A DNA stretch of 53,328 nucleotides, filler included, from Jimgerdemannia flammicorona (Eukaryota): assembly GCA_003990765.1 (NCBI GenBank). It is 2 parts of 2 records of this genome, joined end to end, with 100 filler letters (N's around TTAATTAATTAA, not from the genome) between each part and the next. Parts side by side here need not be neighbours in the genome. Positions count along the whole stretch, not along the records: positions 26,716 to 53,328 come from RBNJ01000713.1; 1 more part is not named here. One strand, 5' to 3'. The notes beneath the pieces were generated by a model. That model was not told where the DNA came from, searched no databases, and was given only the letters and a program-made list of their open reading frames with translations. Shown in pieces: positions 6,009-53,328 of the stretch (within the stretch, counting starts at the first letter, position 1; the number at the start of each line of letters is the position of its first letter). Position numbers and translations under genes: made by a program.

Positions 6009-7544
6009 TGTAATGGTGACCCCAGAATGATGACATCAGTACAGGAGACAGCCTTTCCTTGCAAGCCACCAGATCGGAGCACAAGAAGATCATACGGTAT
6101 ATGAGATGAGTAATGATGACCAACTGTGAGTTATTGTGACCACAATATAAGCATCTTGAAGAATATAAAAGAAGGATCAAGAAACCACAGTAGCAGCAAC
6201 CAACAAGAACCACCAATCCCAAAATAGCTCAAAGACTTACCACAAATGAAATGCCTGCTGCCTGCCAAACCTCAAGGTCAAGGAATCATCAAGACACCTC
6301 AGTTGAAGAAAGGATGTTCTAAGACATCAGAAGAGCCATGGGGACCCACTCAAGAAGGACTCCTAGTATCAACCTGGGTACTGCAGACCCTTATTACTTT
6401 ATTCTCTACTGCTATGAAATAGAAACAAGGATCACCATTGCTACCGAATGCCTTCAAATGTGGCAGGAGTATGAAATAAGAAACCTCCTCTGCTGGGAGT
6501 TCCCACAGGCTAGTACTTAAGAGCTACAAGATGCCACTTCCATGGATATACGCGAAATAAGGATAGCTAAGAAGATCCATCAGATCTTCAGGCATGCACC
6601 ATGGTTGATCCCCAACTTAGAGTATGTTAGAGTCTCGGATTTCAGAGACCTGTCATCCTGCTGTATCAATACACTAAAAGCCAAGGTGGCTACAGAAGCC
6701 CAGTCCACCATCACCCTCAATAGTGAAGAAGTAGAAGACTTCTGACATCCCATCCTTCAGGACAATCCAGACCAATTCCTGCAAGGATTGATCTCAGTAT
6801 TCCAAGGCCCAAGCATCTAGGTTAGATCTCCCCAAGACCCCACATTTGTCTCCTATTTTGTGGAAGAGAACTATATAGACTAGAGAGCTCCAGATCTTGT
6901 TCCTGATTTCCTTGCCACCAAATGTGATGATGTCATTGGTGATGATGTCATCCCACATGACATCGACATATGCGAAGTATGTGAACTGCATGATGACAAA
7001 TTCACAGATCTCATCTCTTTCAGTGATGATGATGATGAAGCCCCTATGGTCCTGAACTTTCTGCTCTAAGTTCTTTATTATACTGGATAATGCCAGCACC
7101 GGTATTCTCATGTAACACTGGATAATGCCAGCACCAATATTCTGAGGTAATGCAGAATTGTTCCAGCACTGGTATTTTGATGTCACACTAAATAATACCA
7201 GCATCCTGAACCTGTACAACCATCAGTGCCAACCCTGGAACTTAGTAGTTTTAGTTATTGGAATTTATATTTAGCTTTATATCTTAGCAACCATTGAATT
7301 GTATTTTGTATAAATACCTCTCTTATTTCCTCTGAAATAAAGTCAGTCAAGTTCACCTATACACACTTCCTTGCAAGCAATCTAAGAGATAACAAGACAG
7401 TTAAAGATATGAAGTTTGAGAACTATAAGACCTTGGGAAGGTACTCCAATAAGAACTTGCTTATAACAAACTTGAGTTAGTCTAAGAGATATATCTTGAA
7501 GAGAATCTGGCATATTTGAAGGACTCAGTGACCACTATGTGACA
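6009..7544 (+). repeat. 5' LTR of element 1 (1536 bp)
   Basis: Starts TG and ends CA, followed by ACT+TGG. TATAAATA at 7309, AATAAA at 7336, ~35-bp tandem repeats at ~7082-7205. The first 186 bp recur after the PPT at 13244. Confidence 0.85.
6251..7069 (+). pseudogene. Decayed ~272-codon ORF inside U3 of LTR 1, homologous to the LTR ORF at 50141-51292
   Basis: Single frame from ATG 6251 to TAA 7067 with five internal stops (TAA 6320, TAA 6518, TGA 6743, TAG 6818, TAG 6881), all explainable by C>T/G>A. Acidic C-terminus. Motif matches to the 383-aa ORF. Confidence 0.75.
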
Positions 7545-7600
7545 ACTTGGTACCCATTGGCTAGTGATTCAAGATGAATCTCTCACTTACAAGCTGAAAA

Positions 7601-10600: not shown

Positions 10601-11690
10601 TAGGCAGCTCTTGCCAAATATTCAAGAGATTCTTACCACTCTTGGAAGTGAAGCCAAATACTACACTACCTTGGATCTGTTCTCAGGCTTCCATCAGATT
10701 GGTCTCACTCAAGATACCAGTGAGAAATCAGCCTTCATCACACCTGACGCCACCTATATCTATCTGCGAATGCCATTTGGAATGTGCAATGCCCCAGCAA
10801 GTTTCCAGTGAATGATGAACAGAGTCTTCAGCAATGAGATTGGAAAATGGCTCTTTGTCTATGTTGATGATGTGATTATCTTCAGCAACACTACATGGGA
10901 ATATATCAATCACATACAGCTAGCCCTCAAGAAGCTCAAGGAGCATGGCCTCTACATCAAGCCTAAGAAATATAAGTTTGCAGCTCAGGAAATCGCCTAT
11001 CTAGGACACCTCATCAACCAGACTGAAATCCACACAGACCCTATGAAGATCGAGGCTGTTGCAGCCTACCCAAGACCCAGAACAACCACAGAAGTCCACG
11101 CCTTCCTTGGACTGGCCAGCTATTACAGAAGATTCATCAAAGGATATTCCAACATTACAGTACCTATCTATGAGCTACTGAAGAAGGAAACCAAATTTGA
11201 ATGAACCAAGGAGCACCAAGAAATCTTCAATGAACTCAAGACCAGGTTGACCCAAGCACCTATCCTCAGAAGACCAGACTGGAACCTAGAATTCATCCTG
11301 CAGACAGATGCGAGTGCTATAGGACTTAGAGCAGTCCTAGCTCAGAAGAAAGATGGACATGAATATGTCATCTCTTATGCAAGCTGAGGTACCCATGGAG
11401 CAGAACAAAACTACAAGTCATGTAAGCTCGAATGCTTAGCAGTAGTTTGGGCAGTAGATAAGTTCCACTACTACCTAGCTGGAAAACACTTCACCATTCA
11501 AACAGATCATTCTGCTCTTGCCTGGCTATTTCACACACTGAACCTCAAAGGAATATATGCCAGATAGATCTACAGACTGCAAGAGTATGACTGTACTATC
11601 AAGCACCACTTAGGAAAGACCAACACCAATATCAATGCACTCTCAAAGATACTCTGAAACACCCCCATCAAGACTATTCAACATGAATAA
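7601..11690 (+). pseudogene. Gag-pol of element 1: gag, CCHC knuckle, aspartic protease, Cys/His module, dUTPase, RT, RNase H
   Basis: Same-frame ORF fragments: CFRCGEEGHYVKSC knuckle; AIIDTG protease; dUTPase motifs RSSLA, GGVINPDYTGKI and RGEQDFGST; RT SPWASPIV..CIDYRKLN..MPFG..YVDD; RNase H FILQTDAS..TDHSAL..NALS. Many premature stops. Start approximate. Confidence 0.9.
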
Positions 11691-12888
11691 GGAGCTATAC
11701 TATAGATTAATCAGCTACCTTGAGCAGTGGAAGATGCCCAACCACCTCGAACTCTGGACAATCACCATCATCAACTGGACTTGGAAATAGTTTGAACTAG
11801 ACAACACTACACTCAGAAAAGAAGGAAAGCTAGTAATACCTGAACACAAGAAGTATCAAGTAATGAAGGAAGTATATGAGCAAGGATACTTAGGAGGAAC
11901 CAATACATATGACAAAGTAAGAAGAATTATGTGGTGGCCCAAGATGGAAGAAGACCTGCACCAATTTGTCAAAGGGTGTGACAAGTGCCAAAAACAGAAA
12001 TAAGATCAGCAAGACCAGGCACTCAGGTCATCAATAATTGAGCCTATTCTCTTCCACCACATTGTAATGGATATCATTGGACCACTACCAGTAATACTAT
12101 CAGAAAACTGCTATATTATAGTTATTGTAAACCTCTTCACTAAATGGATAGAGGCAGGAGCATTACAAGAAGCCAATGCCCTCTCTATAGCCGACTTCCT
12201 GCACCAAGAAATCATCTGCCACTACAAGACACTGAAGCAAATCACAACAGACCACAGAATGGAATTTGTCAATAGATTCTACAAGATAATGTATCAGAAA
12301 TACAAGATCCAGCACATCAAGACCACCACATACCACTCTCAAGAAAATGGAGAGACAAAGAGAACTAATAAGACCCTCAAGAACATCCTAACAAAGATCT
12401 CAGAGACATATGAGAATTGGGATAACTATCTCCCAACTGCCCTCTCTGTTCTATGAGACATATGGTCACAGAGTACACACTTTACCCCAAGGGAGCTGCT
12501 CTTCGGAGAAGAAGATTCTGATGGAACCTCAGCCACAAATCTAGATCTAACTTGGAGACAGGTTGATGCAGAAATCCAGAGACTACACCAAATCAGGGAG
12601 AAGGCTGAAGATTATATCACTAAGTCACAAGTACTGATAAGGAAGAATGCAGAAAAGAATCACAAGACCCTAGAACCCATCCAAATTGGAGAAAAGGTTC
12701 TACTGTATTGAAATATGGTAGAAGTCTCATGGTCATGAAAACTGGAGCCTAAATGGGAAGGACCCTTCTATATACAAGATATCAAGGGAACTACCTTCTG
12801 GCTTAGAAAAATCTCAGAGACCATACTGCCTACTATGGTATATAGGAACAGACTCAAGAAGTACTATGAACCTATACAAGAGAAGTAA
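11683..12888 (+). pseudogene. Integrase of element 1 (own ATG, different frame from RT-RH)
   Basis: MNKELYYRLISYL..., zinc-binding region WWPKM..CDKCQK, core MDIIGPLP..FTKWIEA..ITTD..ENGETKR, and GPY/F-type KWEGPF. Stop at 12886-12888. Confidence 0.88.
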
Positions 12889-13243
12889 AATGTGATGATC
12901 GCCTGTGAGGTTCTAGTCCATGAATCATAACAGCATGTCCTGTGACCAGCAGGCTATCTGTCTGGACCATTCTCTAAAGGATACGGCATTAGCAACTACT
13001 CATCCATGAGACTTTTGAAGTTAGAGGAGTTCGAACCGTCAACTGATTGGTCAAGATCAGAATCAGACCCTTGCTCTATATAAAGAGAGTGACTCTTCAC
13101 CATCATGCCAAAATACAAAGAGAAGATGCCAGTCCATAAATATCACTTTTCAACCCCTTGCCAGAGGTTATGAGATCAGCAAATTTTTCAGGACTGGACC
13201 AATAAATAAGGATGCTCAGGAAGATCCTTATTCAGAAGGAAGA

Positions 13244-13429
13244 TATAATGGTGACTCCAGAATAATAACATCAGCACAGAAGATAGCCTTTCCTTGCAAG
13301 CCACCAGATCAGAGCACAAGAAGATCATACAGTATATGAGATGAGCAATGATGACCAATTGTGAGTCATTGTGACCACAGTACAAGCATCCTGAAGAATA
13401 TAAAAGAAGGATCAAGAAACTGCAGTAGC
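13244..13429 (+). repeat. Truncated 3' LTR of element 1
   Basis: 186-bp direct repeat of 6009-6194 with 17 differences, all transitions. The terminal TG has mutated to TA. Confidence 0.9.
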
Positions 13430-23984: not shown

Positions 23985-26525
23985 TTACTCGTCACCGTTG
24001 AGACCGTTCCCATCGCCAACGACGGTCACGACCTGACCGTTCGGCATAACGATATCGAAGAAATCGCCTGAGTCGGTGAAAGTGAACTGGGACGCCATGT
24101 CTTCCGCCGTCGCATCAGGGTCCGACTCTTCTTGCTGGGCGCCACCCATCATCATGGACTGGCCCATCATCAAGGAGGACGAGTCCACCATGCCCATTTC
24201 CGGCTGTGCCATTGGAGCCCACATCTGCATGGGTGTCTCCATACCCCTGCTCATCATCACGGTTTGGTTGTTGTAGGCCGTTGACGCATCGGGGAACGGA
24301 AACTCCTCCTCGTCGGCGCTACTCATCATGGACAGCGGAGACGAACCGTGAGGGCCCCGGGTAGTGCGGTACGTGGAAAGATAAGCGGCCGTGGGCTGCA
24401 TCTGGGAAGGGTGCTCCATGTTGGTGGGCGTTGGCGGCGTGACCTCCGTGATGGGTGGCGGGATGGGGATGTTTGCTGGCTTGGCGGAAGGCTGGTCGCC
24501 AGCAGGCGACTGGAAGGACGCTGGGGCGAGAGGGGTCGGTACGGAAGCGGCGCGACGGTGGCGGATGTTGTTATTGGTCTGTTCGGCCACGGCGTAGACA
24601 CGGTGCTGCCTCTGTTCCGGTTCCGGGGGGGCCTGCACAGGGGTGGGCGTGCCCAAGGCGATGTACCTGAAGTTGTCGTAGCTGTGCCTTCGCGTTGGCT
24701 GCTTCACCTCCAACGTAGAGTCGGTGTTCAGGTTGAGCTGATCGACGATCCGGGTCACCTTGTGCATCCTCTCATCGGCAGCGGTGATTTCCAAAACCTC
24801 GTTCTTAAGCGGCTGCGCCAGTCCCTTCAACGAATGCTTGAAAAATCGCGACGCTTGCTTGCCTTCTGTGAAATCGCTGCACTGCGTCCACGAGATGGAG
24901 CCGTTGGGACCAGTAGGCATGCCGTCCTTGGTGTTCTCCATGTAGAAAAGCGGGCCACCGTTCAACTCGATTTCGATCTTGGCAAAAACGCCATCCAGCA
25001 AAATGTAGTCCAAGCTCGTGATGGCTTCGAACGAGAAGTCCATCTTAAAGTGGCTGGTGTTGTCGGTAATGTGCCAGCTCATCTTGCGCTCGGGGATGTT
25101 GTAGTAGCAAAGCAGATCTGTTGCGTTGATCTTCATGCGGCGCCAAGAGTTGATGATTAGAGTGTCGGCAGAGAACAGATGAGCAGCGACATTTGGCGAC
25201 GGTGCCGAGATAAGGTGCGGGTTTTGCATCGTATAGGGAGGTCGGATATCGAGCTGTGCCGGCATTTGCTGCCGTTGTTCTGTGTATAGGGAGAGAAGGA
25301 AAAAAAAAAGTTCGTTTAGAGAACTGCTTTCACCCCCTTTAATTTTTCTATTTTGCTTCCATTTCGGGTTGTCGTTAATTTTTTTTTTTTTTTTTTGGAC
25401 AGCGCTATATATAAAACACTTACCGTAAGGGTTCGGCATCGGCGTCGGTGACATCATCGACCCAACGGGAGTAGGCGAGAGGTACCTCAACTGAGGCTGC
25501 GGGCTAGGCGAGGCCGACGGACTTGGCGAGAAAGCCGGGCTAGGAAAGGCGGAGACGCCGTTGGACACGTAGGTCACACCGCCTGGGCCCTGCAAGAACT
25601 GGGGCCCGCCCATTGCGGCGAACTGAGGAGTAGGCGGCCATATACCAGGCATGGAGATACCAAGGCCGGCGTTGGGATGACCGTGCATGGGTGGCGGTGT
25701 GGACGAGCGCATACCCGGATTCATCTGCTGTTGAATATTGTGAAGCATGTCGCTGCTGTACGAGCGCGGAAGCGGAATGCGGCCGGCGTTGGGGTGGCCG
25801 TGAGGAGGTAGACCGGCACGGAAGGGGAACATACCGGCGGGATGCATTTGGCCGGGGAAGCCCGAGGCGAGAAACTGGGCCTTCATGGCCTCCTCTTGAA
25901 GGAGGTGGGCGCGCTTCTGGATGGTCTTGACCTTGGCCCGCCGGTTCTGGAACCAGATCTGAATGGACCGCTCGCTCATGTTGAGCTTCTCGGCTAGCTG
26001 CTCGCGGACCTTGCTGTTGGGCGAGGTGTTGCTGACGAAAGTCTCCTCCAGCACGGCAAGTTGCTCGGGCGTCGCGCGCGTCCGCTTTTTGGACGTCGAC
26101 GAGGTGGAGTGTTTCGATTTTGATGATGCCGAGGTGTTGTTATCGTCGTCCTTTTTGGCGGCACTGCCTTCCATTTTGACGGCGTCTTCATTCTTGTCCT
26201 CTGACCCGCTCCGGTCGTGCTCGTCATCGTTGTCGCGGTTCTCGTCGCTCTCGGAGCACGAGCTCCTTGGGCTATCGCAGTATTTGTTGTTTGCATAGTC
26301 CACGCCAAGATCAGGGGTGGGCGATTTCATTTTGAGTTTGGAAAGGCTCGCCATGGTGTCGGAAAAAGTGCGCTGCAGCTGAGGCGCGTTGCCGGGAACA
26401 GCCAGCGTGTTAAAGTTGTATATGTCGTCCTCCTCGCTGTCGTATGGGTTGTTGAAGTGCACGCCCACGAAGTTCTTCTTGCGCGGCGGCTCATTCATGG
26501 TGTAATCGGGTGCCCGGACAGCCAT
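23985..26525 (-). CDS. Homeobox transcription factor, Phx1/Hoy1/Pah1-type (~798 aa if the 144-nt intron 25280-25423 is spliced)
   Basis: Homeodomain KKRTRATPEQLAVLEETF..MSERSIQIWFQNRRAK. Conserved central domain SWRRM..DLLCYY..PLFYME..QCSDFTEGKQAS is typical of this family. Upstream exons could be hidden by the gap at 26616. Confidence 0.92.
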   Translation of the reverse strand: MAVRAPDYTMNEPPRKKNFVGVHFNNPYDSEEDDIYNFNTLAVPGNAPQLQRTFSDTMASLSKLKMKSPTPDLGVDYANNKYCDSPRSSCSESDENRDNDDEHDRSGSEDKNEDAVKMEGSAAKKDDDNNTSASSKSKHSTSSTSKKRTRATPEQLAVLEETFVSNTSPNSKVREQLAEKLNMSERSIQIWFQNRRAKVKTIQKRAHLLQEEAMKAQFLASGFPGQMHPAGMFPFRAGLPPHGHPNAGRIPLPRSYSSDMLHNIQQQMNPGMRSSTPPPMHGHPNAGLGISMPGIWPPTPQFAAMGGPQFLQGPGGVTYVSNGVSAFPSPAFSPSPSASPSPQPQLRYLSPTPVGSMMSPTPMPNPYGKCFIYSAVQKKKKKINDNPKWKQNRKIKGGESSSLNELFFFLLSLYTEQRQQMPAQLDIRPPYTMQNPHLISAPSPNVAAHLFSADTLIINSWRRMKINATDLLCYYNIPERKMSWHITDNTSHFKMDFSFEAITSLDYILLDGVFAKIEIELNGGPLFYMENTKDGMPTGPNGSISWTQCSDFTEGKQASRFFKHSLKGLAQPLKNEVLEITAADERMHKVTRIVDQLNLNTDSTLEVKQPTRRHSYDNFRYIALGTPTPVQAPPEPEQRQHRVYAVAEQTNNNIRHRRAASVPTPLAPASFQSPAGDQPSAKPANIPIPPPITEVTPPTPTNMEHPSQMQPTAAYLSTYRTTRGPHGSSPLSMMSSADEEEFPFPDASTAYNNQTVMMSRGMETPMQMWAPMAQPEMGMVDSSSLMMGQSMMMGGAQQEESDPDATAEDMASQFTFTDSGDFFDIVMPNGQVVTVVGDGNGLNGDE

Positions 26526-31172: not shown

Positions 31173-34100
31173 GTACCCATGGTGAGATACCTGAGGTGGG
31201 ACCCAAGAGTAGTGCAGCTTCTGGTGAAAGGAGTTCCCACTGTTACTGCTGTTGAGATGAGGAAGAGAGTCAAGGAGATCATGGAGGAGTATGGGGAGGT
31301 GGTTGATATTGGGTTCTGAGTGTGGGAAGGAACCTCCCTCTGCACAGGGGATGTTGACATCAGGATCCGGTTGGCAGGGAGAGAGGCTACTGGGAAGGCT
31401 CGGGACTGGCCCTCAGTGATGGTGTAGGGGGCTTTCTTGTACAAGGTGATGAGAGTGAAGGGGAGCAAGGAGGAGGAGGAGGATTTGTTGGAAGTACTGG
31501 AGGAGTTGAGTAGGGTGGTGGAGAGGAGGGCAAAGGCATGGAAGGCATTTGAGAAGTCGACGCATCTTGAGGTGGTTGGAGAGAAGCAAGTCTGCATCAA
31601 TAAGGAGGTGTGGGAGTGGTCCCAAGGGTGCTGAAGGCAGAGGGAGTTATTGGAGAAAATGGGAGTGGAGGTGAAGAGGAAGATAGGAGGTAGTGCAACC
31701 ACTGGAGGTGCTGAGGCAAGTGTCTGGGCTGCTGGTAGTAGAGGGAATGTGGAGGGGGGTCAGGAGGAGGCCAAGAAGGTGCTGAGCAAGAACCTGTATG
31801 AGGATGGTACATTGGAGGTTTGGGAGGAAACCTGGGAGGATTCACCTTCTCTCTCTCCCCTTATCAGAAGGGGACCAGTGGTGAGAGGTAGGGTGGTGGA
31901 GGATGTGCAGATGTGCAGAGCTCAGCAGGTGTGCTTTGGAGTCCCAAATGTGGAGAAGGGGGGATTGGTAAAGGCAACTAGAGAAGAGAAATTGGTGGAT
32001 GTCCCAGAGAAGGGATGGAATGAGTCAGCAAGTGTAGGGGTTGATACTACAATGTTGGATGGAGGGAGGCCAGTGACCCCAGGAGGGAAGGAGGTGGGGA
32101 ATCTGCTCTGGGTGTGCTGGATGATGAACAACTTGGCAGTGGAAGAGCTGGGGGAAGTTGACCTCCAAGTGATGAGCAATAAGCACTGGATAAGGATCCT
32201 GAAGGGCGATGGAGTGGTGGCAGTGCTGAAGGCAGAAATTCTGATGGTATACTTAGAGGAGGAGGGGTATGAGGTTGATAAGGAGAGGGAGGCTGCTCTG
32301 GCAGTTGTGGCGGGTGAGCAGGCTGCCCACTGTTGGGCTAAGTGACATGGACTGCAGCTCTGGCAAGAGGCTTGCTTGGAGTACTGCAAGGAGTTTGAGG
32401 AAAAGGAGGATGGGGAGATGGCTGAGATCCTGGCTGAATTGGAGGCTAAGAGGGCTGAGGAGGCAGAAGCTATTGCAGAGTGCAACCTGGATAGGGCACA
32501 GGAGGAAGTGGACATAGAGCAGTAGAGGACTCATTTGAAACTATATAATCTCTCTTATGAATAGTACAACCAATATTTTCTCTTTGAATGTGAATGGGCT
32601 ACAGGGGTCTTTTCAGTGCTGGAATATTTTTACTTGACTAAAGGGATTAGAGGCTGATCTCTTTCTTTTGTAGGATGTCAGATGTGAGGATGACTTGGAA
32701 GGGTTAGAATGGACAAGGGAATGGGGAGGGGAGGCAGTTTGGATGAGAAAGGTCAGGATACTGGTTCGGAGGGGCAGAGGGGAGATCCGGGATGTAAGGA
32801 ACTAGGGTGACAGGCTGGTTTGGGGAGAATGAATATGTGCAGGCTGGGAGCCAACCATGGTGGGTTCCTGCTACTGCCCTGCTATGAGGATTGAGTGTGT
32901 CAATTGGGTGAAGGGCCTCAGGGAGAGTGGGGTCCTCACTGAGGTGGGCATAGACTTGCTTGGTGGGGACTTTAATATGCTCAGAGATGCATTGGTAGAT
33001 AGGACCGACAGAGGGGGGGGGGCTGAGGGTAGGAGTGGTGGGCTGGAGGCATGGGAGGAGGTGGAAAGGTTGAGTGCTCTGGTGGATGCTGGTAGGGGGT
33101 TTTGGGGTGACAGGAGGGTATACACACATTGGACTGAAGGCCTGGGGACAAGAATTGATTGGATTTTGACAGCAAGCTGCCGGGGTCTCCATGTGTGGAA
33201 GTCACTGGAGATTGAGTGGTGTCCATGGTCGGATCATTGGGGTTTGCTAGGGCAGGGACATTTTGGGGGGAGTGGGGATGGGCCTGGACATTGGCACCTC
33301 AATTTCTCTTTGCTAGCTGATAAGATGCTGTGGGATAAGTGGGAGATAGAGATTTGACAGAAGGTGGAGGGCTGGATACAGGAGAGTGCCCCAGTCAGTG
33401 CCAGGTGGTTGAGGTTAAAAGATGCTGCCAGGGTCTACTGGAGTGAGGCTGGCAAAGTGGCTGGAAGAGGGAGAAGAAGTAAGGGAAGATGGGCTTCTGC
33501 TAGACTGACTAGGCTTTTGAAGGATTGGGCTGGTCTGGTGGAGTGAGAGGGGGGGGAGGACTGGAGAGTAAGGTGGGTGAAAATGGAAATTGGGGAACTA
33601 CAACAGGTGCTGCAGGATGAGGAGGAGGCGCAAGCACAGGGCCTGATGGCAAGGTTATGATGGCAGGGGCAGGAGGAAGGAGAAAGGCCTTCAAAGTATC
33701 TCATGAGGGCCCTTCAGGTAAGGAGGGTGAAGCAGAGATGGGAGGGAGTAGAGACACCTGATGGTTTACTAGTACATAGTATACAAGACATTCTCAGTAT
33801 GTTGAAGGGGTGCTGGAGTGGACTTTGGAGTGAGGAGGAGGATGGAGCAGGTGATGCCACCATTGACCATGCTCTGGAGGACTGGCACCCACTACAAGTA
33901 GAAGGGCTGGGTGACTTGGTATCACTAGTTTGAGAGGAGGAGATTCAATGGGTACTGGCCATGACTACTTTGGGCACAGCACCAGGGGAGGATGGTCTGC
34001 CCTGGGACTTCTGGAAGAAGATGGTGGGAGTTCCTAGAATACTGGGAGAGCTGACGGCATTGTGCAATCTGATACTACAGTCTGGGCAATGGGTGGGGGA

Positions 34101-36279
34101 GAAGGACCTTGGGCTGGTGATGTTGATTTTTAAGAACAAAGGGAGAAGAGAGGACTGGAAGAACTGGAGGCCGATTATGCTGCTGGATATGGACAGAAAG
34201 TTGGTCACTAAGGTGGTAGTTGCTAGATTGCAGAGTGTGGTCCAGCAGATCCTAGGTGAAGAGCAGCACAGCTTTATCAGAGGTCGGCTGATTAGAGATA
34301 GCATGGCTTGGGTGCATGGGGTTATTGAGGGGGCATGGGCATGTGGACTGGATAGTTGACTGGTTTTCCTGGATCAGGAGAAGGCATATGACCATGTTCA
34401 ATGAGTATGGTTGGCGAGAGTACTGGACAGAATTGGCATACATCCTCAGTTCAGGAAAGTAATGATCAGCCTACTGGAAAGGAGTAGGGCTGCTCTTATT
34501 TGCAATAGTCACAGGGGGGTGGCTTTTCCTCTGGGCAGGAGAGTACCTCAGGGTGACCCTCTATCCCCCATTCTGTATACTCTATCCTTGGAGCCACTGA
34601 TAGATAGGATTCATAGGAAAATAGTTGGGCTCTCCATCTATGGTATTGGGTGGAAAGTTGGTGCCATTGCGGATGATATAGTGGTCAGTCTGGGATCAAT
34701 TGAGGATGTCATAGAGCTCAAGAAGACAGTGGAATGGTATGAGGTCCACTCTGGGGCTCAGCTCAATTGGCACAAGTGTGAGATGATGGTGTTAGGCAGG
34801 GGACTAGTAGGAGGGGATGTCATTGGAACAATTGTCCCAGTGGGAGAGGTAGTGTAGTACCTGGGTATATTTCTGTCAGTCTATGGGTCGGTCCTTCCAA
34901 GACCCTAGTGAGAGCAGAGAATTGCAATCTGGGAGAAAGCTTTGCAGAGTTGGAGTGGCCATCATCTGTCTTTGATGGGGTGGATCTCAATTCTGAATAC
35001 TTACTGGCTTCCAAAGTTATGGTATTTAGCATATCACCTGGACTTTCCAGTCTGGGTGGTGAAGAGGTTAGTGAAACTGGCCAAAAGGTGGATCTGGGCT
35101 GGCAAATGAAGTCAGATCAGTTGGGAGGTTTTGTCTCTACTAGTGGTTAGAGGAGGCCTTGGGCTGGTGGACTTCCTGAAGTGGCTATTCTGCTTATGTG
35201 TGTGGTGGCTGAAGAGGGTAGTAGAGTTGTGTAGGAGTAGCTAGGTTCCCCTGATGTAGAAGGTTTGGGAGATGAGGTCATCACCAAGAGGCTCTATGGG
35301 AGATCTACTGTCCTTGGTTAGACTTTGGAACATTGGAAGATTATGATTCAAAGACTTCTGGTGGGGAGTAGTTGATGGTGCTCACCATATTGGAGTTCGA
35401 TGGCAAGAGAAAGAGGGAGAGGAGCCATGGGACCCAGTCATGTGGAGATGGGACTGAGTACTGCTGGGGGGTGTTCCTCTTTTGGACTTTGATATTGGTG
35501 ATGGAGTAGAGTACCAGCGGGGACCAGGCCAGGATCTTTGGCCCAGCAGCTGGCAACTAGCAGGTATTGGTGAGGAGTGAGACTGGAGTGGCATTTGAGC
35601 ATGGAGTGATAGAGTGTGATGCTGGATGCCGCCAAAGTATTGGGTGGTATGGTGGTAGATGCTAAGGAGGAATGTTATGCTCAACTTCTGATCAGACCAT
35701 CTCATAGAAGGGGGGAGCTTTGACTGTAAGGAGTGCCATAATGTAGGACAGGAGGGGGGATATGTGCAGATGCCTGAACATTGGCTGGGGGAATGTGAGG
35801 TGCTGAGTGACTTTTGGTTGGCAGTTGGTACTTAGCTTGGTGTAGTATATAGGGGAGATAGTGAGCAGGGTTGGTGGGAGGATTTGAGGGATAGATTGGT
35901 AGGGGGGGTGGGAAATGAGTGGCTCACCTTGGTGGGTTTTGGCAGTTTGGATGGAGTTAGCTGGTCACTGGTTGTTTGTTTTCGAAGATGAGAGGAGCAT
36001 GAGTTTGGGGGTACAGGTTTTGCAGTAGCAGGGGTTGATGGAGGATATAATGACAGGCTGGTGGCAAGGCTGGGGTCTGCAGGGAGGTAAGAGGTATCAA
36101 TTGGTAGAGAAAATCTACTGGAGGAGTGGGGGGAGAATGAGGGTAGTGGATGGAAGGGTAGTACTTATGTGAGAGGGTAGGGGGGGGGACCCCCCTGTGG
36201 GGATTGGGTAGTGCGAGAGGTGCATGTATTTACCAATAGAATGATCTGGTGCATTAATAAAGGATGGAGTCCAAGTGAC

Positions 36280-36312
<33 letters not shown>
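31173..36312 (+). mobile_element. L1/Tx1-like LINE (ORF1 interrupted by element 3; decayed ORF2 APE-RT-CCHC; poly-A tail)
   Basis: ORF2 ATG at 32557 (MNSTTNIFSLNVNGL); GGDFN, RIDWIL, SDH, APGEDG, NWRPIMLL, PQGDPLSP, IADD; C-terminal CKECH..EHWLGEC; AATAAA at ~36256 and poly-A at ~36283-36312. Confidence 0.92.
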
Positions 36313-36314
<2 letters not shown>

Positions 36315-39300
36315 AGCACTACTCTACTCCCTTCCAGTAGGCTGATCATTGCCACTTGGAACTGTTGAGGGACACCAATCTTATCCAGTACCTTTGCCCA
36401 CCAGATCTGCTTAACATGGTCATATACCTTCTTCTGATCTAGGAAAACCAGTCACTCATCTAGTCCACTGGCTCATACCCCTTCAATAACACCATGTACC
36501 CAGGCCATGCTATCCCTAATAAGTTGGCCCCCTACAAAACCTCACTGCTTCTCACCCATGACTTGCTGGGCCACCTTCTGCAGCCTCGCTACCACCACCT
36601 TAGTGACCAACTTTCTGTCTATATCCAGTTATCCCTCCTGCTCTTGTTCTTATAAAGCAGTGTCACCAGCCTCAGATCCTACTTGCCCACCCATCTCTCT
36701 GACTATAGTACCAAGTTACAAAGAGTCATCAGCTCTCCAAGCACTCCAGGGGCTCCCACTATCTTCTTCCAAAAGTCCCAGGGCAGACCATTCTCTCCTG
36801 GTACTATGCCCAGCATAGTTATGACAAGAACTTAGCAAATTTCCTCCTCCTGTACAGGCAATACTAAGCTGCCCAGCCCATCTGCCTGTGGTGGGTGCCA
36901 ATCCTCCAAAGCACAGTCAATAGTGGCAGCATCAGCCCCACTCTCCTCCTCACTCCACAAATCACTCTATCTCTCCTTTAATGAGCTGAGAATGTCTTGT
37001 ATACCATACACCAGCAGATCATCTGAATCTAGTACCCCCTCTCATTGCTGCTTTACTCTCCTCACCCAAAGGGACCTCATGAGGAACTTAGAGGGCCTCT
37101 TCCCTTCCTCCAGCCCCTGCCAACATAACCTTGCAGCCAAACTCAGAACCTGTACCTCCTTCTCCTTCTGTAACATCAGTTGTAATTCTGCAACCTCCAT
37201 TTTCACCCACACTAATCTCCAGTCCTCCACTCCCTTCAGGGCCAACAGACCAGCCCAATCTTCCAAAAGCCTAGGCAGTCTAGCAGAAGCCCACTTCACC
37301 CTCTTCCTCCTCTGTCTTCTGGCCACCTTGCCAGCCTCAATCTAGTAGACCCAAGCAGCCTTCTTCAACCTCATTTACCAGATACCAACTGGGGCACCTT
37401 CCTGTATCCAACCCTCCACTCTCTGCTGAATGTCCTCAGCCCACCTGTCACACAGTACCTTCTCATCCAACAAAGAGGAATTGAGGTGTCAATATCCAGG
37501 CCCATCCCCACTCCCTCCAAAATGACTCTGTCCCAGTAGCTCCCAATGATTAGACCATGGACACTACTCTACCTCTAGTGATTTCCAAACATCCAAGCCC
37601 TAGTAGTCCACCATCAGCACCCAGTCAATCCTCATTTCCAAGTCACTTATCCAGTACATGTATACCATTCTATTACCTCAGAACTCCCTGCCAGCATCCA
37701 CCAGAGCACTCAGTCTTTCCACCTCCTCTTATGCCTCCAGACCCCCACTCCTATCCTCAGCCCCCTGTCATCCATCAGTTCTATCCACCAGTACATTCTG
37801 GACTATATTAAAGTCCCCTCCAAGCATGTCCACTCCAGCCTCTGTAAGGGTCCCACTCTTCTGAAGACCCCTCACCCAATCCACACACTCACCCTGTACA
37901 GTAGAGCAGTAGTTGGAACCCACTATAACTGACTCCCAACCTGGTTGTATCTACTCTCCCCAAACTAGCCTATCTCTCTAGCTCCTCACATCCTGTATCT
38001 CCCCTCTGCCTCTCTGGACCAGAATCCCAACCTTGTCCTTCTAAACTACCAAACCTCCCTATTTCTTTGTCCATTTCAGTCTATTCAAGTCATCCTTATA
38101 TCTGATATTCTGTAAAAGAAAGAGATCAACCTCTAATCTCTTCTGCCAAGCAAAAATGTTCCTATGTTGAAATGAACCCCAAAGCTCATTTATATTTAGA
38201 GAAAAAATATTGGTTGTATTGTTTATAAGAAAGATTTTTAAATATTAAGAATATCCTCTACTGCTCTACATTCATCTCCTCCTGTGCCAAGTCCAGATCA
38301 TATTCAACATCCACCACCTCCTCTTCAACCCTCTTAGCCTCCAATCCAATCAGTAGTTCAGTAAGTTCCCCATCCTCCTTTTCCTCAAAGTCCTTATGAT
38401 ACTCCAAACAGACCTCCTACCAGAGCTGCAATCTATGTCTCTCAGCCCACCAGAGGGCAGTCTGCTCACCAGTAGCAACTGCTAGCTCTCTCTCTCTTGT
38501 CTTATTGACCTCATACTCTTTCTCTTCTAAGAAAACTGCAAGCACCTCTGCCTTCAGAGCCTCTCCCACTCCATCTTCATGTAGGATTTGTGCCCATTGA
38601 TCATCACTAAGTACTCTCAAGTCCACTTCCCCCAACTCCTTAGCCACCATGTTGTTCATTATCTGATACATCCACTGGAGGTTGCCCACCTTCTTTCCCC
38701 CTAGAATTGCTGATCTTCCTTCCCCCAGCATCAATATATCAGCCCCTGCACTTGCTGTCTCATCTTTCTCCTCCTCAGAGACACCCACCAATTCATCCTC
38801 ATCTGCCACCACCACCCATCTCCCTTTTACCACCTCAGGAACTCCAAAGTATACTTACTGGGCCCTCTATATTGGTACATCCTCTACCACCCTGCCTCTT
38901 GAGGCTAGACCTTGTCAAATAAGAGAAGGGGTGTCCTCCCAAACCTTAAGCATACTATTCACATATAGGTTATTGCTAGTCACCTCCTTGTCCACTTTAG
39001 GCCCCTCTACCACCATCTCACTATCTTCACCAGCCCAGACACTTGTCTTGGCTCCCTCTGTATCCTCAATTCCTCCAGCATCCCTCTTCGCCCTACTCTC
39101 CAGATTTGCCAGTAGCTCTCTCTATCTCTTGCATCCTTAGGACCTTTCCCACAGCACCTTATCTATGTGGATCTGCTTCCCATCTACTACCTCTAAATAC
39201 ATTGACTCCACATATACCTTCCAAGCCTTTGCCCTCCACTCTACTATACTACTCAGCTCCTTCAGTGCCTCCAACAAATCCTCTTCCTCCTCCTCACTCC

Positions 39301-40255
39301 TCTTCACCCTTGTCACCTTATACAAGAAGGCCCCCTATACCATAACTGAAGGCCAGTCTCAAGTCTTCCCAGTAGCTTCCTATCTGGCCAACCAAAACTG
39401 GACATCAATATCTCTAGTCCTAAATGAGGTCACTTCCCAGACCTGGAACCTGACATTGACCACCTCTCCATACTCAACCATGACTTCCTCAACTCTTCTC
39501 CTCATCTTCACAGCAGTCACTATGGATACCCCTTTCACCAGAAGTTGTACCACCCTGGGGTCTCATCTTAAGCAGTGTGTTATCAGAACACACACCTCTC
39601 TAACAGTCAGCCTAGCCTTCAGCACATCCTCCAATGGCCCTGCCTTCTCAAAGCCCACCTCTACTTCTTCCAATCTCTTCAGGAACTTCATAGATACTGC
39701 TTCAGCCACCTGCTTAGCAATTAGCCCCAATATCATTTTTGCTATCACTATTAAGCCCCAGAAGCATAAAGTAACTGTGAACTCTGAGATTGACTTCTTG
39801 AGTAACAGGTCCACCACCAGACCCATTACACTATCTGTCAGGTCTCCCATCCATCCAAGCCCCATCCTCTCAGCCCTGCTATCAGCAGTCACATCTGGAT
39901 TTTTTTCCAGATCACCAGTCACCACTCTATCAGCAGTTATACCCCCAGCTACTACTCCACCAGCTCTTCTACTTAACACCTCCAAGAGAGCCCCTCCTGG
40001 CCCCCCAGCAGCAGTCTTCTCCTTGTCACCCTGCAGCCATCTATCCAGTTCAGCCAGCTGGTTCCCCTATCTGACCTTTTTAGCAAAACTCATCTACTTC
40101 CCTCCTATCTGTACTATACCTCCTCCTTCACCACCTCTGACCTCTCTTCCTCCTGACAAAGTACTTGCTATCCCCAACTCTACTCTCTGACCTCTCTCCA
40201 CATACTGTCAGCCAAATACACTGGGGCCACCCTGCCCAGTACACTCCATAGAACT
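36312..40255 (-). mobile_element. LINE of the same family on the minus strand (ORF1, APE and part of RT), interrupted by the plus-strand LINE
   Basis: Reverse complement is collinear with 31173-34500 and 45250-49230. RT similarity runs right up to the neighbour's poly-A tail. Confidence 0.9.
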
Positions 40256-48100: not shown

Positions 48101-49956
48101 TCCTATCTGGAGGCATGAGGGTTGTCTGTGGGTGTCCGTTGAATGAGGTTGAAGGAGGCTGTGAGGGTCTATTGAGGAGGAGCTGGTAGGGAGGCTGGGA
48201 GACAGAGAAGGAGACACATATGGTATGCTTCTAATAGGCTGATGAGATTGCAGATAGCATGGGCTGATCTGCTTTCTTCTGAAGAGGGGGAGGATTGGAG
48301 ATTAGAGCAGATGAAATTGAAGGTGGTGGAGCTGCAACAGGTATTGAGAGAGGAGGAGGAGATTCATATGAAAGGAATGGCTGCCAGGCTATGGTGGCAG
48401 GGGCTTGAGGAGGGAGAGTGGCCTACTAGGTACTTGTCTAGGCTCCTTAAAGCTAAGAGAGTGTGACATTGGTGGGATGGGGTCTTTGATGCTGAGGGGG
48501 ATATGGTGCATAGCATACAACAGATCTTGAGAGTTTTAAAGGAGAGATGGCAGGGTCTGTGGAGTAAGAAGAAAGGGGGTGCTGATGAAGAGGTGATTGG
48601 AGATACACTGGAGGAGTGGGAGCTGCTACAGGTAGAGGGACTGGTTGACTTGATCTTACTGGTCCAAGAGGAGGAGATCCAGAGAGTCCTTGTAGTGACT
48701 AAGCTTGGGACTGCACCAGGGGAGGATGGGTTACCTTGGGACTTCTGGAAGAAGATGGCGAAGGTCCCTGGAGTGTTAGGTGAGATGACTGCCCTCTATG
48801 ACCATGTTCTTCTAAATGGTGAGTGGGTTGGTGAGCAGGACTTGGGGCTGGTGGCATTATTGTACAAAGACAAGAGGAGGTGAGAGGACTGGAAGAACTG
48901 GAGGCCAATCATGCTTCTGGATATAGACAGAAAGATGGTGACTAAGGTGATTATTGCAAGGCTACAGAAGATTGCCCAGCAGGTACTGAGTGAGGAGCAG
49001 TGGGGCTTTGTAGGAGACAGGCTTATCAGGGATGGGACTGCCTGGGTACATGGCATCATTGAAGGGGCCTGGACTTGTAGACTGGATGGTAGACTGGTCT
49101 TTTTGGACCAAGAGAAGGCCTATGACCATGTTTGGTAGGTGTGGCTGGGCAAGATACTGGACAGAATTGGTGTGCCCTCACAGTTTTGGACTTCTATATT
49201 GAGTTTGTTAGAGGATAGTAGGGTAGTGTTGATGTATAATGGTCACAGAGGTTTGGTATTTCCCTTGAGAAGAGGAGTTCCTCAGGGAGACCTGCTGTCT
49301 CCTATCCTTTATGCCCTTTCATTGGAACCTTTGTTAGATAGGATATGTCGGAAGGTGGCAGGGCTCTCTATATATAGTGTGGTGTGGAAGGTGGAGGCCT
49401 TTGCAGATGATATGGTGGTTGGACTTGGATCAGTGGTAGACGTAGAGGTACTCAAGAAAACAGTGGAATGGTATGAGGTACACTCTGGTGTGAAACTCAA
49501 CTGGCATAAGTGTGAGATGATGGTGTTGGAAAATGGGCTAGTGAGAGGAGATGTCATTGGAACAATTGTCCCTACAGGAGAGGTGGTGTAGTCTCTGGGC
49601 ATCTTCCTTTCTGTATATGGATCTGTCTTGCCATGAGTATGGTGGGAGAGGAGGGTGGCCATTTGGGGGGAGGCCCTTAGAGGTTGGAGGGGTCACCACA
49701 TCTCCCTGGTAGGGTGGGTGTTAATTCTAAATGTCTACTGGTTCCCCAAACTATGGTATGTGGTCTATCACTTAGACTTTTCAGCTTGGGTAGTAAAGAG
49801 GCTGATGAAACTGGCTAGAGATTGGATTTGGACAGGAAGAAGGTCCCATATCAGTTGGGATACTCTTGCAATATCAGTGGTTAGGGGAGGACTAGGCCTT
49901 GTAGATTTCCCTAAGCAGCTGCACTACCTGTATGCTTGGTGGTTGAAAAGGGCTAT
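45142..49956 (+). mobile_element. LINE with intact 5' end (ORF1 ~45288-47260, ORF2 from 47292), decayed, interrupted by LTR element 4
   Basis: 5' end shared with the relic at 1095. ORF2 starts MNSITKIFSLNVNGL; GGDFN, SDH, PQGDLLSP, FADD, GGLGLVDF. LINE homology stops abruptly at 49956. Confidence 0.92.
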
Positions 49957-52031
49957 TGTAAGCACACAACCTCCAAGCCACCGAAATTATACATCACCCT
50001 CTGAACAAAGCCACTGAAATTACACACGACCTCCGAACAAATCTGGAAATCACCTGCTTGATCATGAAGCTGAGTCAAACCGAAGTCACAGCGCACAAAG
50101 CTGAGTCAATACAAAGTCATGAAACACAAGATCTACACAAATGGAACCTTACCAATCAGGACCAAATGCATATATACTGAGCACCAAGACGCGTCGAATC
50201 AAAGAACCAAAACAAACAACAACCACAACTTCCAAATATACAAACATGACCACTGAGATCTACAACCGCATCCGTGCTGACATTTGGAATGCCATTGTCA
50301 ACCGAGCTACACCCCCTCTGCCCCTCATGAATATCCATAGCCTAGCACTCCTCTACTTCGTGGAAGCCCGATGGAATGCCCTGAACATGCTTAGTGAAGC
50401 CCACCGAATCGGACAAATCTCAAGCTACTACCAGATTGGCCGCCTCCTAGAAGACATGGTCGAACACCACTATGATACAGACATCACCCAGATGTCTCAA
50501 CACCAGAAGCTCATCGCTTGCAAACATCGAGAACTCTTCTATGAGTACAACACCTTTATTCCCCGCCTCCGAGTTACTACCAGCGAAATGGTTGCTACCC
50601 TGTCCTATGGCCAAATCGATGACATGATACAAGAAATCAACCACAAGTACCTCGAGTATGTCAAAACTACAGACAGAACCTTTCCACACCCTGATGACCA
50701 CATTCTACAAATGCCTCAAGTTGGATATGCCATGAAGGACGTCTACGATATAATCCACTTCGACGAAGATGAAGCAGAAGACAATGATCCCTCGGATACC
50801 AACATGACCTCTAGTCAAGGATCTCTGCCAACCCTGATCACTCCACCAACCTTGCCGATGAACTTACAACAGTTCATAACTGCATACGAGACTTATTGGG
50901 ACAATGACCACTGGCATGAATACCAACCCGTGTTCACCCCCGACTACTTCAACTACAATGAAGAGACCGGAGAACACAACCTGTACCTTCAGACAACCCT
51001 CGAGATTGAACCAACCACTCCACCACCCAAGTACGAGCGACTTGAACCACAGCCGCCATCTTACTACAATCTCATGACTCATAGTGCTGTAACCTATAGA
51101 AGGTATACAGACAGTGAATCCGATGAAAGCGAAGACAGTACACCCATTCTTCGCCCACCAACACCTTATCCAGCATATGAAACAGACGATGCTATCCTGT
51201 GGAATGGAGATGAAGTCCCAATGTATTACTACCTTAGCCAACAAGGAGAAGTAATCCGCGAACCACTCTTCCTAGATGACTACTTCATCTGAGATGATGC
51301 AATCGATGGTGATGTCATCGAGGACTACCCTGATAGCGCCTAAACCTATAAATAGTCTAGCAGTCATAATATAGATAGATTAGCCTTATACAACATGACT
51401 GTGAACTGACTCAGCAGTCAGATGATCTCTTGACATGTCAGATCACACTTGTACTACGTGACTGCATTCCGACTCAGCAAGGCACTTAGTGCTACATCCA
51501 TATCTAGCATAGTCTAGATAGCCCCTCACTAGTATAAATACCCCCTCCCCCAGACCTCAGAATCTCAGACTCAAACAGACTTGAACAATCTGAATGCAAC
51601 TCCTGAGCACTTTCCCACAATACCCCTTTATACAAATACTCCTAGTACAGCAATATCATGAATAGCAAATAAACCTATTTTATAACCCACAAACCACTCT
51701 TAAGTAAATCCGCTCCCTGTTAGGTCCTACTTCTAATCCTGTCACGAAATTTCCTAATTGGGTATTGTCTGCAGCGATACGCCAATTCAACTAAGCTGGT
51801 CTTAGTTTCTCGAACTTCCTGAAATACGGAAAATCCTGAACATCCAGAACTAGTCCAAAAAAGGACTTTGGTTGAGACGTCAACCCGATCTTGAAATCAA
51901 TAAGCGTAGAGGACGTACTCTATATGAAATTGATCTTGATCATAAGAAAACGGTCTTCCAGAATATCCAGAACTTCTAGAAAACCCTTCCAGAACTACGT
52001 AACGGTCACCCTAAAAAGTAACCCTCTTACA
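49957..52031 (+). repeat. 5' LTR of element 4 (2075 bp)
   Basis: 6-bp terminal inverted repeat. Starts exactly where LINE homology ends. TATAAATA at 51533, AATAAA at 51668, followed by ACT+PBS. The second LTR is not in the window. Confidence 0.8.
50141..51292 (+). CDS. LTR(U3)-encoded protein of unknown family, 383 aa, helical-looking N-half and acidic/Pro-rich C-half
   Basis: Uninterrupted ORF lying wholly inside the LTR, upstream of the TATA box. The TGA may be a mutated CGA, which would extend it to the TAA at ~51343. Confidence 0.8.
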   Translation: MEPYQSGPNAYILSTKTRRIKEPKQTTTTTSKYTNMTTEIYNRIRADIWNAIVNRATPPLPLMNIHSLALLYFVEARWNALNMLSEAHRIGQISSYYQIGRLLEDMVEHHYDTDITQMSQHQKLIACKHRELFYEYNTFIPRLRVTTSEMVATLSYGQIDDMIQEINHKYLEYVKTTDRTFPHPDDHILQMPQVGYAMKDVYDIIHFDEDEAEDNDPSDTNMTSSQGSLPTLITPPTLPMNLQQFITAYETYWDNDHWHEYQPVFTPDYFNYNEETGEHNLYLQTTLEIEPTTPPPKYERLEPQPPSYYNLMTHSAVTYRRYTDSESDESEDSTPILRPPTPYPAYETDDAILWNGDEVPMYYYLSQQGEVIREPLFLDDYFI

Positions 52032-52034
52032 ACT

Positions 52035-52046
52035 TGGTAGCAGCGG
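52035..52046 (+). other. Primer-binding site, likely tRNA-iMet
   Basis: TGGTAGCAGCGG lies 3 nt after the LTR's terminal CA. TGGTAGC matches the 3' end of eukaryotic initiator tRNA-Met. A CpG-decayed version occurs in element 3. Confidence 0.75.
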
Positions 52047-52138
52047 TTTACAATCCAGTTCCGCTTCAAGATGCTTCCTCACCCCACTACAAACCCTTCT
52101 GCGAATTCCTACAAGTTGGTATAAAGCCCAACCTCTGA

Positions 52139-53328
52139 ACTGGAATTTCTCCTGAACCTTCTGACAATCTGGAGAGAATTGAACCTGACGTACAAGGACA
52201 ATTTGACCTCCACACCTGCAACAAGTGGGACAAACTTCATTCAAAGAAAGAAGTACTCAAGTTAAACCAGCAAATAGGCGAAACCCTATTCACCGAACTC
52301 CTTGCACTACACCCAGCAAGTCAAGACGAAGAAGGTCTTATTGAAGCCTTCTTTACTCTTCTCAATAAGAGTTTTGTCAGCTCCGCAAATCCGAGTGACC
52401 TAGGACAACCAGCAGTAGTCTTTCTAGCCTTAGTTCCTTACGAAGCCCAAGCCTCTGTAGCCAAGTGGCTCAACTCTACCGACTTTCACCACATCAGGAC
52501 CAAGACCGCATTATACTATCGATTCCAGAACAGCAAGGCCCACCATATCCTTAAGGAAGAAGCAAGAGAAACCCTTTATCAACTACCTGACCCCAAACCT
52601 GAAGCAGGCCCTGCTACAACCCTACCTGAATCTGAAACCAATACTGAACCTGAACTTGACTTTGAATTAAGTCTATCTGAAATCAGATATACAACTGATT
52701 CTGTCTACTTTGACGCCAAGCAAACCCAATTACACGAGAACCAAACTGAAGAAGAGGAGGAGTATCTTACTGAATTCGATCCCGGATATACCACCGAAGG
52801 AGACGCACATCCATCAGGACAGAATACATCTACACAGCAACAAACAGCTATCTATCAAGCCCTCACTCCAGACCCACAACTACTACTCCAGCAGCTTACA
52901 CAGACTCAAAGAACCCCATCACACTCTGCACCAGTATCTCAAGTAGTACCAGTAACACCACTACCAGCAGTCCAACCACCTCCAGCAATCAACATGGCGA
53001 ACCAACAAATTCTGAATCTCACAGCCCAAGTAGCTATAATGGTAGCAACTATTACTGCCTTAGCCGAACAGACCCAATCTACCAAAAATCTGAGCCTACC
53101 TACCTTCAATGGTACTGTACAAGAAGTCCAAAGCTTCATCAGTGTAGTCGACAGCAACTTTGAAGCCAATCAATGGACCAATGAGCAAGTTGCTGACCAC
53201 GTTCTGACAAACAATCAAGACCACACCCTGGAACAACTCTTTGCTACCACTACAGCCTATGTCCGCCGAGTTGTTACATTCTTCCGAGGACCTGCCGAAG
53301 AATGGTGGCGAACCCTTCCTGAAAAACC
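52139..53328 (+). CDS. Gag of element 4 with long N-terminal extension (partial)
   Basis: No stop from 52139 to the window end. Capsid-like LPTFNGTVQEVQSFISVVDSNFEANQW..FFRGPAEEWW follows ATG 52994 and is homologous to element 3 gag. Confidence 0.82.

Follow-up and report, generated by a model that had tools for sequence, protein, structure and literature searches.

Can a long terminal repeat (LTR) of a retrotransposon outside the retroviruses carry a whole gene? The question is raised by positions 49957–52031 of a 53,328-nt stretch of DNA from Jimgerdemannia flammicorona (NCBI GenBank assembly GCA_003990765.1), hereafter called the window, which consists of two parts joined by 100 filler letters and whose second part, from position 26,716 onwards, comes from RBNJ01000713.1. 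A sequence-only reading had proposed that this segment is a 2.1-kb LTR with an intact 383-residue open reading frame (ORF) in its U3 (unique 3′) region. On follow-up, the sense ORF at 50141–51292 proved to be real and beyond chance expectation, but it is not intact, as its TGA is private to this copy and the family frame is longer. The best explanation, to which we assign as a whole a probability of about 0.6, is that the segment represents a 5′ LTR, that the LTR retrotransposon to which it belongs is a young member of a high-copy family, inserted in an older long interspersed nuclear element (LINE), and that this LTR carries a real, family-wide sense coding frame, an element-borne accessory gene in U3 that would act in trans. 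The features on which this explanation draws are collected in Table 1.

The limits of the LTR were examined both in the window and in other copies of the element. The sequence-only reading had delimited it by its terminal hexamers, a LINE breakpoint and a primer-binding site, and all three were seen. TGTAAG (49957–49962) and CTTACA (52026–52031) form the terminal TG...CA as short inverted repeats, as in an LTR. A LINE copy is broken off at 49957; in alignment with two other LINE copies of the window, LINE–LINE homology continues up to ~49956 and is gone beyond. Following a 3-nt spacer after the LTR end, the sequence TGGTAGCAGCGG at 52035–52046 is of the primer-binding-site type, again as expected of an LTR, and we take it to resemble the 3′ end of initiator tRNA-Met; no tRNA gene was found in the window. 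No second copy of the LTR was found inside the window, which stops 1.3 kb into the internal region.

Other copies were collected from public data by comparing Logan contigs of two soil metagenomes (X1 and X2) and one organism-labelled run (X5) with positions 48800–53328 at a likeness of at least 88%. Matching contigs numbered 5,268 in X1, 717 in X2 and 532 in X5, with 30 of 30 depth bins covered in each run, and most X1 contigs were 90–99% like the window. Depth here is a sum over contigs and is not usable as a copy number; the region depth ratios given below are means of bins. In three X5 contigs, which represent other copies and not the one in the window, a polypurine tract, AAAGCTAAGAAGGGGAGAG, lies directly 5′ of base 49957, as at a 3′ LTR. 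X1 and X2 contigs cross 52031 into the primer-binding site, and in one X5 contig 50736 is followed by 49955, the kind of joint expected if a further copy had inserted into an LTR. Both ends of 49957–52031 behave as LTR ends in other copies, and the element is a member of a high-copy, polymorphic family. In X1, 281 of the 316 variable places were transitions, and the proportions in X2 and X5 were similar. Where other copies read C or G, the window frequently reads T or A, a pattern that fits deamination-type repeat decay. Raw reads of a further run with the organism label of X5 (X23) gave 0 matches on 48800–53328, which is no test of presence; the labelled organism may not carry the element.

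The ORF exceeds what the composition of the LTR would give by chance. The longest open sense frame of the LTR spans 389 codons from stop to stop. In 2,000 dinucleotide-preserving shuffles of the LTR, such frames averaged 90 codons and were at most 196 long, and none reached 383. The frame also has the periodicity of a coding sequence: the share of G at codon positions 1, 2 and 3 is.279,.115 and.137 from Met36 to the family TAA, in comparison with.303,.093 and.096 in the frame of the gag region and a flat.114,.114 and.114 over codons 1–35. In base composition, the ORF (A.313, C.296, G.177 and T.214) matches the internal region (.328,.294,.163 and.215) and differs from the host homeobox gene and the LINE. 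The ORF is, or recently was, coding, and it is a long-standing resident of the element.

The end of the family frame is given by other copies and by a relative from protein databases. At 51290, the first base of the TGA at 51290–51292, the contigs read another letter and thereby a sense codon, with non-stop depths of 1241.2 of 1241.2 in X1 (30 contigs), 66.3 of 66.3 in X2 (3 contigs) and 98.9 of 101.5 in X5 (11 contigs). The relative, P0001, a protein of 247 residues from a 998-bp metagenome contig, has Arg at the place of the window's TGA and then 16 more residues that align with the window frame up to the TAA at 51341–51343. Since the TGA is private and P0001 reads through to that TAA, the family frame comes to 400 codons when counted from Met1. 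At other places too, all or nearly all contigs disagree with the copy in the window, and at least 5 of these differences alter a residue. This copy is decaying: its private stop falls 17 codons early, and it has several residue changes of its own.

For the start of the family frame, the sequence moderately favours Met36 (50246) over Met1. A second database relative, P0002, which is 94% identical to the ORF, begins at Met36, and codons 1–35 lack periodicity. The TATATA at 50171 sits between Met1 and Met36, and there is no ATG in 50167–50245. Within codons 1–35, all three of the listed variable places change a residue, and 4 nt are deleted at 50210 in one X5 contig. All of these support Met36, and codons 1–35 are probably non-coding. 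Only two indels reached the listing threshold over the 4.5 kb compared, both upstream of Met36.

The ORF belongs to the LTR in other copies as well, as its junctions with the LTR head and tail are common to the three runs and not private. Among the five joints listed, all at a depth of 5 or less, none skips the ORF. The ratio of the mean depth of the ORF part to that of the internal part is 1.6 in X1, 0.8 in X2 and 1.9 in X5. Sequence between the first base of the LTR and the primer-binding site multiplies only via the 3′ end of the RNA, and the ORF region should therefore reside in both LTRs. The earlier proposal that the ORF is duplicated at each replication thus finds its support in the logic of reverse transcription together with the family-wide ORF, rather than in a direct sighting of the 3′ LTR.

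Table 1 Coordinates of the LTR, its ORF and associated features in the window
Feature	Positions	Strand	Basis or remark
Predicted target-site duplication GCTAT, the five bases preceding the LTR	49952–49956	+	Sequence; LINE homology reaches here
5′ LTR, 2075 bp, with terminal inverted hexamers TGTAAG/CTTACA	49957–52031	+	Ends, LINE breakpoint, and polypurine tract and primer-binding site in contigs
33-nt tandem repeat, 2.1 copies	49975–50041	+	Repeat detection; copy number varies among family members
Two 22-nt direct repeats (86%), TGAGTCA at 50071 and 50102; candidate enhancer of an LTR-internal promoter	50067–50119	+	
383-codon ORF as in the window	50141–51292	+	ORF call and shuffle test
TATATA between Met1 and Met36; candidate TATA box of an ORF-specific transcript, putative promoter	50171–50176	+	
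Probable family coding frame from Met36 to TAA, 365 codons, broken here by the private TGA at 51290–51292	50246–51343	+	Codon periodicity, P0002 start, contigs and P0001
Two 40-nt direct repeats, inverted copies of the upstream TGAGTCA units	51377–51479	+	Repeat comparison
TATAAA in a 20-nt tandem repeat; candidate genomic-RNA promoter with a putative start, U3/R border near 51560–51570	51533–51538	+	
AATAAA, the sole one in the LTR; candidate poly(A) signal, putative R/U5 border near 51690	51668–51673	+	
Primer-binding site TGGTAGCAGCGG, 3 nt beyond the LTR end	52035–52046	+	Sequence
Gag-region internal frame, open over 396 codons up to the end of the window and continuing beyond it; first ATG at 52994	52139–53326	+	Coding-type periodicity

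The signals around the frame suggest how it might be expressed. As the sequence-only reading had noted, the ORF is preceded by repeats carrying TGAGTCA, which we take to be an AP-1/Gcn4-type site, and is followed by a TATA box and a poly(A) signal; the repeats were found as two 22-nt units, and the downstream signals as the TATAAA at 51533, with an additional TATAAA at 51347, and the only AATAAA of the LTR at 51668. The whole ORF, with its end at 51343, lies upstream of both downstream signals. The layout would be an ordinary one, with U3 from 49957 to ~51560, an R (repeated) region of ~100 nt and a U5 (unique 5′) region of ~340 nt, and would thus place the ORF in U3, a position that relies on the presumed transcription start. 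Nearer the LTR head, loose contig ends at 49987 and 50008 resemble the next unit of the 33-nt tandem repeat. The 40-nt repeats beyond the ORF are inverted copies of the upstream units and therefore bracket the ORF with an inverted repeat pair: 50100–50121 pairs with 51394–51415 at 19 of 22 positions, a pairing reached in 0 of 100 shuffles, and 50069–50098 pairs with 51449–51478 at 70%.

An accessory gene so placed would be copied into both LTRs in each round of reverse transcription. We propose that a second, upstream promoter in the LTR, formed by the two TGAGTCA repeats and the TATATA at 50171, would give transcripts from ~50200 whose first AUG is that of Met36 and which end at the poly(A) signal of the LTR itself, and that each LTR would in this way form a unit of ~1.45 kb complete in itself. 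Acting in trans, the product would then serve the family as a regulator or as an adaptor to host factors. Alternative routes of expression would be a spliced subgenomic RNA, as for sag and nef, or a very long R. A bolder proposal, which we offer tentatively and which is, on balance, doubtful, is that every LTR, solo LTRs included, is a potential expression unit of its own, with enhancer repeats, TATA box, the 365-codon orphan ORF and poly(A) signal nested upstream of the promoter of the element. The family would then multiply, to hundreds of copies, the gene of a protein that acts in trans on behalf of the element, with activation of transcription from the LTR and dampening of host silencing as two examples of what it might do.

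The predicted product was compared with protein and structure databases. Searches covered 1.84 billion cluster representatives of all lengths and a 5.8-billion-cluster set at near and shorter lengths, and beyond P0001 and P0002 no true relative of the ORF was found in either. One further match, P0003 (E 2.4e-4), was rejected as spurious, being a tandem-repeat protein. The ORF matched 0 Pfam families, nothing in the PDB by sequence below E 0.15 and nothing in the ESM Atlas. Foldseek comparison of the ORF models with the PDB gave a best E of 0.3 and none at E 0.001 or better, a result that is meaningless at the confidence of these models. The homology and fold check that the sequence-only reading had asked for accordingly matched no host gene, env or Pfam family, and the product is an orphan. 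No paralogy of the ORF with the gag leader was found either (best E 0.9).

In the models, helices are predicted over approximately residues 38–176, with the rest mostly without structure, and the product would consist of a helical N-terminal part of ~140 residues and a C-terminal half that is probably disordered. From Met36, the product has a pI of 4.5 and a net charge of −34. Its C-terminal 183 residues contain 36 D+E against 6 K+R, as well as 21 P and 18 Y, in line with the acidic C-terminus claimed earlier. A role as silencing suppressor or transactivator, which the sequence-only reading had considered plausible, would have this acidity as its sole basis. Blocks kept with P0001 include FPHPDDHILQMPQV, FTPDYFNYNE and PPTPYPAY, plus an acidic-hydrophobic tail that the early stop removes in the window. 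The PPxY motifs PPKY and PPSY in the C-terminal half are not kept in P0001, and nothing was made of them. Metagenome contigs gave no confirmed locus by the pattern YGQIDDM or by six further patterns, and the JGI contig of P0002 was missed as well; two of the six (EDMVEHHY and WNGDEVPM) hold residues private to the window copy, which may explain that miss. There was likewise no match to protein patterns, run on viral contigs only, or to a degenerate DNA motif and the junction of LTR end and primer site, run on viral and genome contigs.

Comparison between lineages speaks for constraint on the frame. P0001 is 65% identical over 230 residues (ORF residues 150–383); its two gaps, of 2 residues each, keep the frame, and it runs without a stop to an identical end point. 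The scarcity of indels over the 4.5 kb compared points the same way. By a rough estimate, neutral drift to this distance would be expected to bring ~5 stops and several frameshifts. Constraint is thus indicated between lineages but, as set out below, not among close copies, a pattern that would be expected of a transposon family of mostly dead copies and that is not proof.

Several observations weigh against an accessory gene in U3, and some of them bear on the rival proposal that the frame is a passenger or relic, once coding, either captured or born in the element, now functionless and still open in some copies only through the youth of the family. At codon 77 (50369), a CGA-to-TGA change creates an early stop that accounts for 31% of X1 depth (21 contigs) and was seen in the one X2 contig at that place and in 0 of 48 in X5; it may be either a CpG hot spot or a sign of ORF-dead copies spreading. 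Many copies are ORF-dead, and the ORF may not be needed in cis. Among the 15 listed variable places between Met36 and the TAA, 7 are synonymous, 6 change a residue and 2 involve a stop (the list holds 40 of the 392 variable places), and on these 15 there is no clear purifying selection among close copies. The only relatives found among ~15 billion proteins, P0001 and P0002, are fragments that form single-member clusters on ~1-kb contigs, and P0001 is known only because its frame is open, which is an ascertainment bias. AlphaFold2 models are of low confidence, with a predicted local distance difference test score (pLDDT) of 32.6 when the whole ORF was modelled and 51.4 when only residues 36–190 were. 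The ATG context of Met1 is as good as that of Met36. Residence in both LTRs rests on logic and on short contigs, the full element and the 3′ LTR of the window copy lying beyond the data. Finally, the LTR tail (51367–51970) is deeper than the ORF part by 2.3-fold in X1, 7.7-fold in X2 and 2.4-fold in X5, so that LTR relatives without the ORF may exist, or the tail may be common to other families. The codon-77 stop, the decay of the window copy itself, the lack of a selection signal among the 15 listed places and the orphan status without fold or family are all what a passenger would show. A passenger would, however, hardly leave a lineage at 65% residue identity with 247 codons open, in-frame gaps only and the same stop; the composition fully matched to the element argues for long residence, and the ORF junctions with LTR head and tail are common to three runs. 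We therefore regard a passenger as unlikely, although it is the strongest of the rivals.

The remaining two rivals concern where the ORF lies and where it came from. Genomic RNA might start at ~50200, which would make R ~1.5 kb long and the ORF, within R and not U3, a first cistron repeated at the 3′ end of the RNA. The TGAGTCA repeats and the TATATA at 50171 lie upstream of Met36, whose AUG would then be the first, and the gag frame, having no ATG for its first 285 codons, calls for an unusual translation strategy anyway. Such a start is nevertheless improbable in our view, as the TATAAA at 51533 stands 135 nt before the sole AATAAA and gives an ordinary R of ~100 nt, and an R of 1.5 kb is far above the usual size. 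About as improbable is the proposal that a foreign cassette, ~50067–51479, was inserted or rearranged and became fixed in one subfamily, the ancestral LTR having been ~650–700 bp long and without the ORF. The inverted repeat pairs that flank the ORF, with their 19 of 22 pairing not matched in 100 shuffles, and the 2.3–7.7-fold deeper tail from 51367 are in its favour. Yet no target-site duplication is visible at the repeat ends, the repeats are made of TGAGTCA units that belong to the LTR itself, the ORF is unlike any transposase and its composition equals that of the element. The LTR head, moreover, is not deeper than the ORF part (a depth of 953 in X1 bin 50008–50158, compared to 840–1350 over the ORF), and no segment-skipping joint is among those listed. 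This rival is about origin, and a gene that arrived in such a way could by now belong to the element. An accessory gene in U3 remains the explanation that we prefer.

The internal region, as far as it lies in the window, is coding in character. Over 52139–52993, its frame has 285 open codons without an ATG, with G shares of.298,.084 and.091 at codon positions 1, 2 and 3; a non-AUG start, a start lost in the window copy or splicing are possible reasons for the ATG-less beginning. The 396-codon gag frame matched 0 Pfam families, and the protein search returned no longer relatives of it; pol lies outside the window. The part of the element inside the window shows no sign of env.

The surrounding window is repeat-rich, with LINE copies at 31.2–39.6 kb, 44.5–45.1 kb and 46.7–49.96 kb in an AT-rich background of 19–30% G+C. 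At 31194–39568, two tail-to-tail LINE copies form a large inverted repeat with arms ~74% complementary, central A-runs at 36279–36326 and a very strong G/C strand skew. A second LTR element, at 6011–13429, has 184-bp LTRs that are 91% alike and ORFs with a zinc knuckle, an aspartic protease and a dUTPase domain (9825–10439, E 2.6e-20). On the minus strand, 23985–26525 holds an intronless ORF of 846 residues with a homeodomain (E 1e-20) and a TRF2/HOY1 PH-like domain (E 3.8e-13), HOY1 being a fungal gene. This homeobox gene, at 57% G+C, forms a host-gene island amid CpG-depleted repeats. Together with the soil runs in which the family occurs, it points to a soil fungus as the probable host.

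The ratio of observed to expected CpG separates the element from these neighbours. It is 0.66 in the LTR and 0.45 in the internal part, against 0.05–0.09 in the LINEs, including the tail-to-tail pair, 0.10 in the other LTR element and 1.07 in the homeobox gene. The earlier remark that this element keeps its CpGs therefore holds for the LTR in comparison with the neighbouring LINEs and the other LTR element. CpG retention is most simply accounted for by the youth of the insertion, in a genome where repeats are methylated and mutated, and need not point to protection based on the ORF.

Extra genes of LTR retrotransposons usually lie in the internal region, and whole genes inside an LTR are textbook rarities of retroviruses, such as sag. 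In mouse mammary tumour virus (MMTV), sag is a superantigen gene in U3 of the LTR and encodes a type II membrane glycoprotein. By position, MMTV sag would be the closest known case: as there, an entire sense ORF, several hundred codons long, is contained in what we take to be U3, and so in both LTRs, upstream of the genomic promoter. The ORF described here has, however, no sequence likeness to MMTV sag, its host is probably a fungus, its product is acidic and predicted to be helical and then disordered, and there is no sign of env in the part of the element seen. Lentiviral nef and foamy-virus bet/bel2 are accessory frames that begin within the internal region and only extend into U3 of the 3′ LTR. 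They have in common with the present case an accessory coding sequence that shares DNA with U3; in contrast to them, the entire frame here, probably with its own promoter, is within the LTR, and there is no homology. No sequence or fold likeness of the ORF to the MMTV Sag, Nef or Bet families was found in Pfam, the 1.84 billion representatives, the PDB or Foldseek, the last with low-confidence models. To our knowledge, there is no description of a self-contained gene in each LTR for any LTR retrotransposon that is not a retrovirus.

Additional ORFs (aORFs) of non-retroviral elements offer a further comparison. In plant Ty3/gypsy and Ty1/copia elements, aORFs such as Ogre ORF1 and the antisense aORFs are situated either after the 5′ LTR and before gag or after pol and before the 3′ LTR, according to a review (PMC7264820), in which the phrases 'in the LTR' and 'within the LTR' have 0 occurrences. 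Like many of those aORFs, the present ORF appears to be an orphan, lineage-specific extra ORF with no known domain (PMC7264820), whereas its location differs, inside the LTR and 743 nt (window end at 51292) or 692 nt (family stop at 51343) before the primer-binding site at 52035. In bdelloid rotifers, LTR retrotransposons have captured a third ORF beyond gag and pol (PMC5408684); these extra ORFs are internal, have recognizable domains and are common to several element types, in contrast to the LTR-borne frame without a known domain found here (PMC5408684). An LTR retrotransposon with a whole ORF in its LTR was not found in the open-access literature, including passages of PMC9210276 and PMC6875170, by exact-phrase matching, which is weak evidence of absence. 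What is new here is the siting of an accessory ORF of an LTR retrotransposon in the LTR, and the reality of the gene is moderately supported.

If a conserved gene does reside in this non-retroviral LTR, LTRs could become gene carriers, and solo LTRs, which are normally counted as dead remnants, could go on encoding protein. Repeat masking would then hide a lineage-specific class of proteins from annotation; the family is abundant in soil data, yet it is represented by two fragments only among the database proteins searched. For the biology of this genome, which heavily depletes CpG in its older repeats, the frame would be a concrete candidate for an element-encoded regulator.

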